Part shown: piece by piece, positions 2,957 through 3,556 of the stretch
Position numbering within the stretch: the first letter of the stretch is position 1
Layout: the number at the start of each line of letters is the position of its first letter
Program-made: the position numbers and the translations under genes
The notes under the pieces: model-generated
What the model was told of the DNA's origin: nothing
The model's database searches: none
Seen by the model: only the letters and a program-made list of their open reading frames with translations
Origin: a virus
Taxonomy: Duplodnaviria > Heunggongvirae > Uroviricota > Caudoviricetes
Direction: 5' to 3' (one strand)
Virus record (IMG/VR): IMGVR_UViG_2548876943_000020
DNA: 9,186 nt

Positions 2957-3031
2957 GATTGCACCTTAATTAGAATAATTCGCATCGTGTTTGAACGGAA
3001 TTTAACACTAGTCACTTGTTAAGGATTACCA

Positions 3032-3181
3032 ATGAACAAGCTATCTATGGGGGTGTTTCGCTGTTCAAGTGTCAGCGAAATATTGAAATATATTAGTGCA
3101 ATAACATTTCATCGGGCGCCGATTAGATACGGCGTGGAAAAGGTGGAAGGCAAAAGCTATGACCGACTACGCCGGACGTGA
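3032..3181 (+). CDS. Small ORF (49 aa) immediately upstream of lxc; possible ulx-like gene
   Basis: ATG at 3032 preceded by AAGGA; ends TGA at 3179..3181. It is below the 60-aa ORF-track cutoff and is supported only by its RBS and its position upstream of lxc. Confidence 0.2.
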   Translation: MNKLSMGVFRCSSVSEILKYISAITFHRAPIRYGVEKVEGKSYDRLRRT

Positions 3182-3268
3182 AATAATATGTCCACACTAT
3201 CTGATACAATAAAACCGAATAGGACATAATTTCGACGTCAAAGCCTTGGCACAGGCTGGAGAGAAAAC

Positions 3269-3517
3269 TTGAAAAAGCGATACTACACAGTAAAGCATGG
3301 GACGCTACGAGCATTACAAGAGTTTGCTGACAAGCATAACGTTGAGGTGCGAAGGGAAGGGGGCAGTAAAGCTCTGCGCATGTACCGTCCGGACGGGAAA
3401 TGGCGGACAGTCGTTGATTTCAAAACAAACAGTGTTCCCCAGGGGGTCCGCGATCGGGCATTCGAAGAATGGGAGCAGATCATCATAGATAACGCATTGC
3501 TCCTGAATGCAGATTAA
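3269..3517 (+). CDS. lxc: Lxc/Bof-like C1 co-repressor, 82 aa, TTG start
   Basis: The ORF starts at a TTG with SD GGAGAG 7 nt upstream and has no in-frame ATG near the start. The 82-aa length and the position between the mat-position gene and the portal match P1 lxc (bof) as I recall it. Confidence 0.5.
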   Translation: MKKRYYTVKHGTLRALQEFADKHNVEVRREGGSKALRMYRPDGKWRTVVDFKTNSVPQGVRDRAFEEWEQIIIDNALLLNAD

Positions 3518-3532
3518 ACTTTCCGCCCTTTT

Positions 3533-3551
3533 GCCCGGTCTATCGCCGGGC
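3533..3551. terminator. Hairpin between the convergent lxc and 213-aa ORF stops
   Basis: GCCCGG-tctatcg-CCGGGC lies in the 39-bp gap between the stops at 3517 and 3557. The downstream U-tract is weak on both strands. Confidence 0.3.
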
Positions 3552-3556
3552 ATCTT

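Follow-up and report, generated by a model that had tools for sequence, protein, structure and literature searches.

Analysis of the 9,186-nucleotide stretch of viral DNA studied here (the window) revealed a P1-like segment, reversed in orientation relative to standard P1, whose backbone genes showed 94-98% nucleotide identity to P1 by blastn against NC_005856, with order and orientation kept (Table 1). The elements of a P1-like (Punavirus-type) backbone, namely immC (c1 and coi), loxP-cre, c8, ref, mat, lxc, prt and pro, were found in synteny, and the C1 operator-like sites of the window were at the expected positions. On NC_005856 the order is cra, cre, c8, ref, mat, res, mod, lxc, ulx, darB, prt and pro, with res through darB on the strand opposite to the other genes of the segment. 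The order given in the preliminary description of this DNA was essentially right, apart from placing cra after cre and leaving out c8, and its assignments of mat and lxc were correct. Prt was 98.6% identical to P1 Prt over its full length (tblastn on the near-identical plasmid NZ_CP045829.1), and Mat was 86% identical to P1 Mat at 99% coverage, with a full-length match to phrog_1837.

Table 1. Genes and other features of the window, with coordinates in nucleotides
Feature	Position	Strand	Description	Evidence
pro	235-1254	-
prt	1247-2956	-	portal, 569-aa ORF; left boundary of the interval
prt-darB control region	2957-3031		divergent; one mismatch to P1
darB'	3032-3181	+	49-codon ORF, pseudogene remnant of darB	blastn vs P1; PHROG; PGAP on a relative
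Deletion 1 junction	3170-3176		P1 10454-17092 gone (6,639 bp)	blastn segments overlap at 3170-3175
ulx'	3188-3229	+	5' stub of ulx, 13 codons and stop (MSTLSDTIKPNRT, then stop)	blastn and parental sequences
ulx 3' end	3229-3268	+	last part of ulx, leader directly upstream of lxc
lxc (bof)	3269-3517	+	C1 co-repressor, intact, 82 aa
Spacer	3518-3556		39 bp, unoccupied res-mod (RD-1) cargo slot
mat	3557-4198	-	maturation control, 213 aa; right boundary of the interval
ref	4387-4947	-
c8	5193-5504	-
cre	5555-6586	-
131-aa ORF	6583-6978	-	extra ORF
cra	6998-7219	-
loxP	7409-7442		exact match to P1
coi	7824-8033	+
c1	8144-8995	+

A 131-aa ORF located between cra and cre, with a 4-nt overlap with the cre start, had no equivalent in P1; 412 bp at 6590-7001 lacked a P1 counterpart. 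This ORF, which also occurs in plasmid pAVS0578-B, showed a full-length match to phrog_20152 (function unknown). No Pfam domain was detected in Mat, Lxc, darB' or the 131-aa ORF, comparison of the same four with PHROGs returned families of unknown function only, and a Rfam scan of the window gave no match at E <= 0.1.

The darB position turned out to hold a deletion scar. The preliminary description gave exactly 75 bp between the portal start and the small ORF upstream of lxc, which agrees with a prt start at 2956, and it was right that darB is absent; the small ORF is not ulx, being instead the 5' remnant of darB, as indicated by blastn against P1 and by the PHROG profile. Window positions 203-3175 correspond to P1 20065-17093, a stretch that takes in pro, prt, the sequence between prt and darB, and darB codons 1-48 (144 nt), after which the reading frame of darB' runs to a stop within former darB-ulx spacer sequence. 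Residues 1-48 of darB' align to positions 1-48 of the 2,278-position profile of phrog_1685, tblastn on NZ_CP045829.1 likewise found no more of darB than this, and PGAP annotated the counterpart on plasmid pE2865-1 as 'N-6 DNA methylase, incomplete, missing C-terminus'. Deletion 1 extends from darB codon 49 to the end of darB plus 15 bp and coincides with a 7-nt direct repeat, which reads CGCCGGG at both parental positions and CGCCGGA in the window. The earlier view that both variable loci of P1 are empty here thus stands to the extent that neither res-mod nor an intact darB is present, but the darB site is not a clean slot. The divergent prt-darB control region was retained, with only 2 of 92 columns varying among six related plasmids; transfer of the P1 annotation by coordinate places PdarB at 2946-2951 (-35) and 2971-2976 (-10), and the late promoter LPpro at 2999-3017.

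A second deletion removed most of ulx. By blastn, window 3170-3228 corresponds to P1 10453-10395, which holds some of the spacer between darB and ulx plus 41 nt from the start of ulx, and window 3229-3524 corresponds to P1 10038-9743, which covers the final 44 nt of ulx, all of lxc and the next 7 nt. Deletion 2 accordingly comprises P1 10039-10394, 356 bp within ulx, joined at 3228/3229, and all that is left of ulx is a stub of 13 codons and 44 nt from its 3' end; P1 Ulx had no tblastn match on NZ_CP045829.1. The intact darB (2,255 aa) and ulx (146 aa) that make up the DarB/Ulx branch of the Dar system are therefore both missing. Both deletion junctions were the same in all six plasmids compared, which come from E. 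coli, E. fergusonii and E. albertii, indicating that each deletion happened once.

Comparison of these six plasmids further showed that 20 of 138 columns vary in darB', with one frameshifting 1-nt indel and one 3-nt indel in two E. albertii relatives, versus 2 of 99 columns from the first junction to the lxc start (3170-3268), a contrast (Fisher p = 0.001) drawn from six related, non-independent sequences. From this pattern, we read darB' as a decaying pseudogene lying beside a constrained lxc and lxc-upstream region. Lxc itself showed 100% amino-acid identity to P1 Lxc, with 11 nucleotide differences, all synonymous.

Loss of most of ulx has a consequence for lxc expression. All three annotated lxc promoters of P1, P1lxc, P2lxc and P3lxc (P1 10043-10392), fall within deletion 2, so that lxc is presumably now transcribed from upstream. 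Promoter-like hexamer pairs were found at the retained PdarB position (2950-2979, + strand) and at the junctions (3159-3187 and 3201-3230), with four promoter-like sites observed compared to 1.3 expected from shuffled sequences. Judging from these hexamer matches and from conservation among the six plasmids, lxc transcription could start at the retained PdarB or at promoter-like sequences spanning the junctions, and a rewiring of lxc onto PdarB or onto junction-created promoters is a tentative, rather doubtful suggestion. A C1 operator arising within darB' to control lxc was also considered. The sequence at 3086-3102 (- strand) has two mismatches to the C1 operator consensus (ATTGCACTAATATATTT), and P1 carries a three-mismatch version at the same place, without operator annotation; this candidate was dropped because the site is polymorphic, three E. 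albertii members of the deletion lineage having gone back to the weaker version seen in P1.

Damage to darB is not peculiar to this lineage. Only 441 of 807 matching PLSDB records hold at least 80% of P1 darB, indicating that the gene is often damaged. A recurrent truncation in PLSDB keeps only the 3' 3,969 nt, and in another variant cytochrome bd oxidase genes (cydAB) lie within the darB span. The preliminary description had called both positions known cargo hotspots of P1-like phage-plasmids. For the res-mod site this is documented, as RD-1 (P1 3,469-9,749; Venturini et al. 2019, PMC6906374) and as region 1 (PMC9603915), but darB is not among the hotspots in these two surveys, and no claim that darB is a cargo hotspot was found in PMC9600943, PMC9603915, PMC6906374 or PMC10879196. 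One of the two surveys describes the antirestriction operon as mostly like that of P1.

On the other side of lxc, the res-mod slot is unoccupied. Exactly 39 bp separate the lxc stop, which ends at 3517, from the mat stop codon, which starts at 3557, and res and mod are absent from this spacer (blastn against P1), both as the preliminary description had stated; an EcoP1I-type type III restriction-modification (R-M) system does not lie between lxc and mat, and Res, Mod and SIR2 had no tblastn match anywhere on NZ_CP045829.1. The spacer contains the one hairpin already described, with a 7-bp GC-rich stem (3533-3539 and 3545-3551); the minimum free energy of the 66-nt stretch containing it (3505-3570) was -17.2 kcal/mol on the + strand and -19.9 kcal/mol on the - strand (z ~ -2.2). 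As a canonical, bidirectional terminator the hairpin is doubtful: a terminator scan did not call it, and it has no clear T run, its tail being AUCUUUCA on the lxc strand and a U run being absent on the mat strand.

Comparison to occupied relatives supported reading this spacer as the unoccupied state of RD-1, since the flanks adjoin and relatives carry diverse, unrelated genes at that very point, including type III mod-res, SIR2, an acetyltransferase and others. In relatives with other cargo, homology stops exactly at the two stop codons (query positions 160/162), and homology to P1 continues through mat up to the mat stop codon. Each cargo type has its own hairpin downstream of lxc. Next to lxc, both P1 and pE2865-1 carry sequence about 70% similar to the full 39-bp spacer (in the P1 flank, ~70% over roughly 50 nt). 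Since P1-type R-M alleles retain such a decayed copy of the spacer, the empty slot appears to be ancestral, an unfilled site rather than a scar, as far as can be judged from this similarity.

Comparison among relatives revealed four states of the two loci: P1 has both occupied; pAVS0578-B (NZ_CP124376.1) has the empty slot with darB and ulx intact; pE2865-1 (NZ_AP018809.1) has the darB' scar together with mod-res-SIR2; and the window has the scar together with the empty slot. The window showed no mismatches to pE2865-1 over 3134-3492 but mismatches from 3493 on, and it showed 11 mismatches to pAVS0578-B over 3229-3445 but none over 3512-3626. This mismatch pattern, taken from two comparator plasmids only, places a crossover inside lxc, at 3446-3492. 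The double-empty state thus looks recombinant, derived from a darB-deleted R-M lineage and a darB-intact lineage with an empty slot. Between res and SIR2, pE2865-1 carries a second, partial lxc 3' end (14625-14739) that is 91% identical to window 3417-3529, which suggests that the cargo modules of pE2865-1 were stacked by successive recombination at lxc. This plasmid also has an icd-ant module after mat, where P1 has ref, and a TnpB gene adjoining pro.

The combination of the two states is rare in sequence collections. The darB'/ulx' scar was contiguous in 19 of 701 matching PLSDB records and the empty mat-lxc slot in 31 of 691 (~4.5%), with both present together in three (NZ_CP045829.1, NZ_CP114131.1 and NZ_CP058684.1). 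A survey of 5,426 complete E. coli genomes, 702 of them P1-positive, returned the same three with both. The scar with the empty slot is a rare combination of two already known gene-content variations.

The whole window, including both flanks, was found at 99.9% identity inside the circular plasmid NZ_CP045829.1 (100,217 bp), and tblastn of 89 P1 proteins against this near-identical plasmid was used to judge the completeness of the replicon. Of the P1 virion, packaging, lysis and replication proteins tested, nearly all were present at full length with >90% identity, including gp23, gp22, gp21, tub, sit, bplA, 16, R, 5, 6, 7, 24, 25, 26, pacA, pacB, lpa, lyz, lydA/B, repL and ban. RepA (41%) and ParAB (43-58%) were present in divergent form; together with the virion proteins, these are the genes that the preliminary description had proposed to look for beyond the window. 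The S tail fibre matched P1 over 66% only; ulx, IS1/isaB, cin with the invertible tail-fibre segment, and tciABC were not found by tblastn on this plasmid, and darB was represented by 2%. The DarA branch, which lies outside the window, was complete, with Hdf, DarA, DdrA and DdrB at full length and 97-99% identity. The rlfB-pmgF region of the plasmid (10,400-19,000) contains cnf3 (cytotoxic necrotizing factor 3) and a copy of IS600, and a HipA-family toxin gene stands at the place of IS1/isaB in P1, indicating that other hotspots of this plasmid are loaded while these two are bare. A Rfam match to IS009 (192 bits) was located in or next to the tail-fibre assembly gene region (plasmid L001 5948-6146).

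We consider it very likely that the interval is the prt-to-mat region of a complete P1-like phage-plasmid that has undergone two deletions, has an unoccupied slot and has recombined inside lxc. The darB-ulx branch would have been lost by two illegitimate deletions, one of 6.6 kb between 7-nt repeats and one of 356 bp in ulx, with the decaying darB' stub and two pieces of ulx left behind. The slot that P1 fills with EcoP1I res-mod, lying between the convergent lxc and mat, would simply have been unoccupied, and the two states would have been brought together by homologous recombination in lxc between a darB-deleted R-M parent and a darB-intact parent with an empty slot. The preliminary description had asked whether the window, with its inverted flanks, might be a P1 fragment, reduced or captured, rather than part of a complete phage; such a fragment could be a transposon-like or otherwise mobilised cassette between inverted repeats. 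The window ends, 1-160 and 9027-9186, are indeed 160-nt inverted repeats with 91% identity, and in the plasmid they widen to 1,350-nt arms at 95% identity (L001 18811-20160 and 29027-30376). However, these flanks are the 3' ends of two paralogous, complete c4-icd-ant immunity modules without a transposase: the arms hold Icd and KilAC-antirepressor genes, with a Rfam match to C4 antisense RNA upstream of each, and the pacB-side copy also has an isrK-like Rfam match. One module is inserted between pacB and c1, the other between pro and lydD, and the P1 order is kept around both (pacB-module-c1 and pro-module-lydD-lyz); counting the canonical immI, the plasmid has three such modules. In PLSDB the c1-side module is common; for the pro-side module together with its flank, just two records gave a full match. 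The window does not look like a composite transposon or an IS-bounded segment, and it was found by megablast in P1-like records only, except for short local matches in a handful of unrelated records. Inversion of the 8.9-kb segment between the 1,350-nt arms was also considered and rejected, because no PLSDB record covers a synthetic inverted junction; the best coverage of that query, 81%, equalled that of the normal arrangement. Given that the segment never occurs inverted in PLSDB and sits in a 100-kb replicon with almost the whole P1 gene set, a captured fragment is very improbable.

The history of each gap can be questioned separately. If the lineage had never had darB or ulx, both gaps would be clean, never-occupied backbone, and the 39-bp mat-lxc spacer, with no visible cargo remnant, agrees with this. 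Yet pieces of both genes remain (144 nt of darB, and 41 and 44 nt from the 5' and 3' ends of ulx), at 88-98% identity to P1 and joined at a direct-repeat junction, which makes a never-occupied origin of both gaps still less probable than capture. The mat-lxc gap alone could be a secondary, precise deletion of earlier cargo instead of an ancestral site, a reading that has more in its favour: cargo at the slot turns over often, the duplicated lxc 3' fragment of pE2865-1 points to repeated recombination, and homologous exchange between the flanks would be scarless. The decayed copy of the whole spacer beside lxc in P1-type R-M alleles fits insertion into an empty site, however, and the spacer of the window is identical to that of the independent empty-slot lineage represented by pAVS0578-B, consistent with its gain by recombination and not by local deletion; we regard secondary deletion as unlikely, though as the most serious of these alternatives. 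That the junctions are assembly artefacts, produced by collapsed or mis-joined contigs, is barely credible, since they recur in complete circular assemblies from different laboratories, hosts and countries (19 with the scar, 31 with the slot and 3 with both).

The P1-like segment of the window can be placed beside several known elements. With P1 it shares the backbone order and orientation, the exact loxP, an identical Lxc and the conserved prt-darB control region. Three stretches of P1 are missing from it, namely 3469-9742 with res and mod, 10039-10394 within ulx, and 10454-17092 with darB, and the 131-aa ORF between cra and cre and the flanking c4-icd-ant modules are extra. pAVS0578-B has the same 39-bp spacer, lxc 3' end, mat 3' end and 131-aa ORF, but differs in its full-length darB (6.8 kb) and ulx, and in c1 adjoining pacB with no antirepressor module. 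Conversely, pE2865-1 and the E. albertii and E. fergusonii scar plasmids share the deletion junctions, the ulx' stub and the lxc 5' part, but their mat-lxc slot is occupied, in pE2865-1 by type III mod-res and SIR2. RD-1, or region 1, is the same locus, bounded by mat and lxc and holding different genes per element; the papers on it (PMC6906374, PMC9603915) describe replacement by other ORFs, whereas the slot of the window holds no gene. An engineered P1 without res and mod (OP279344.1) was deposited as a complete phage genome with all other genes in place, but it was built in the laboratory, has two different ORFs at this locus and retains both darB and ulx. The gene-content variation seen here is thus of an ordinary, already catalogued kind; mildly new are the exact anatomy of the scars, the finding that every mapped lxc promoter is gone, and the apparent origin of the rare double-empty haplotype by recombination.

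Finally, the gene content of the interval allows some predictions about function. None of res, mod, lxc, ulx and darB is essential in P1, where ulx boosts DarB incorporation (PMC10695390); action against EcoB/EcoK involves Ulx, DarB and DdrB, and action against EcoA involves DarA (PMC12810830). The joint loss of darB and ulx fits these roles, because ulx would be dispensable once darB is gone, and the scar provides a case in which loss of darB was accompanied by loss of its packaging helper. Neither P1-type type III restriction nor R-M addiction arising from the mat-lxc locus is expected in the lysogen, and the virions are predicted to lack DarB/Ulx protection against EcoK/EcoB-type type I restriction, with the DarA branch kept. 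If lxc has been rewired, expression of the C1 co-repressor, and hence the stability of lysogeny in these plasmids, could be altered. The interval provides a clean, natural unoccupied res-mod slot whose bounds are the lxc and mat stop codons, which could serve as the reference empty site for cataloguing cargo in P1-like phage-plasmids, and it indicates that accessory-poor backbones can be built by recombination within a conserved gene of 249 bp. Provided that it still works as a phage, this plasmid would be a P1 chassis minimised by nature, without restriction and without part of the anti-restriction functions.
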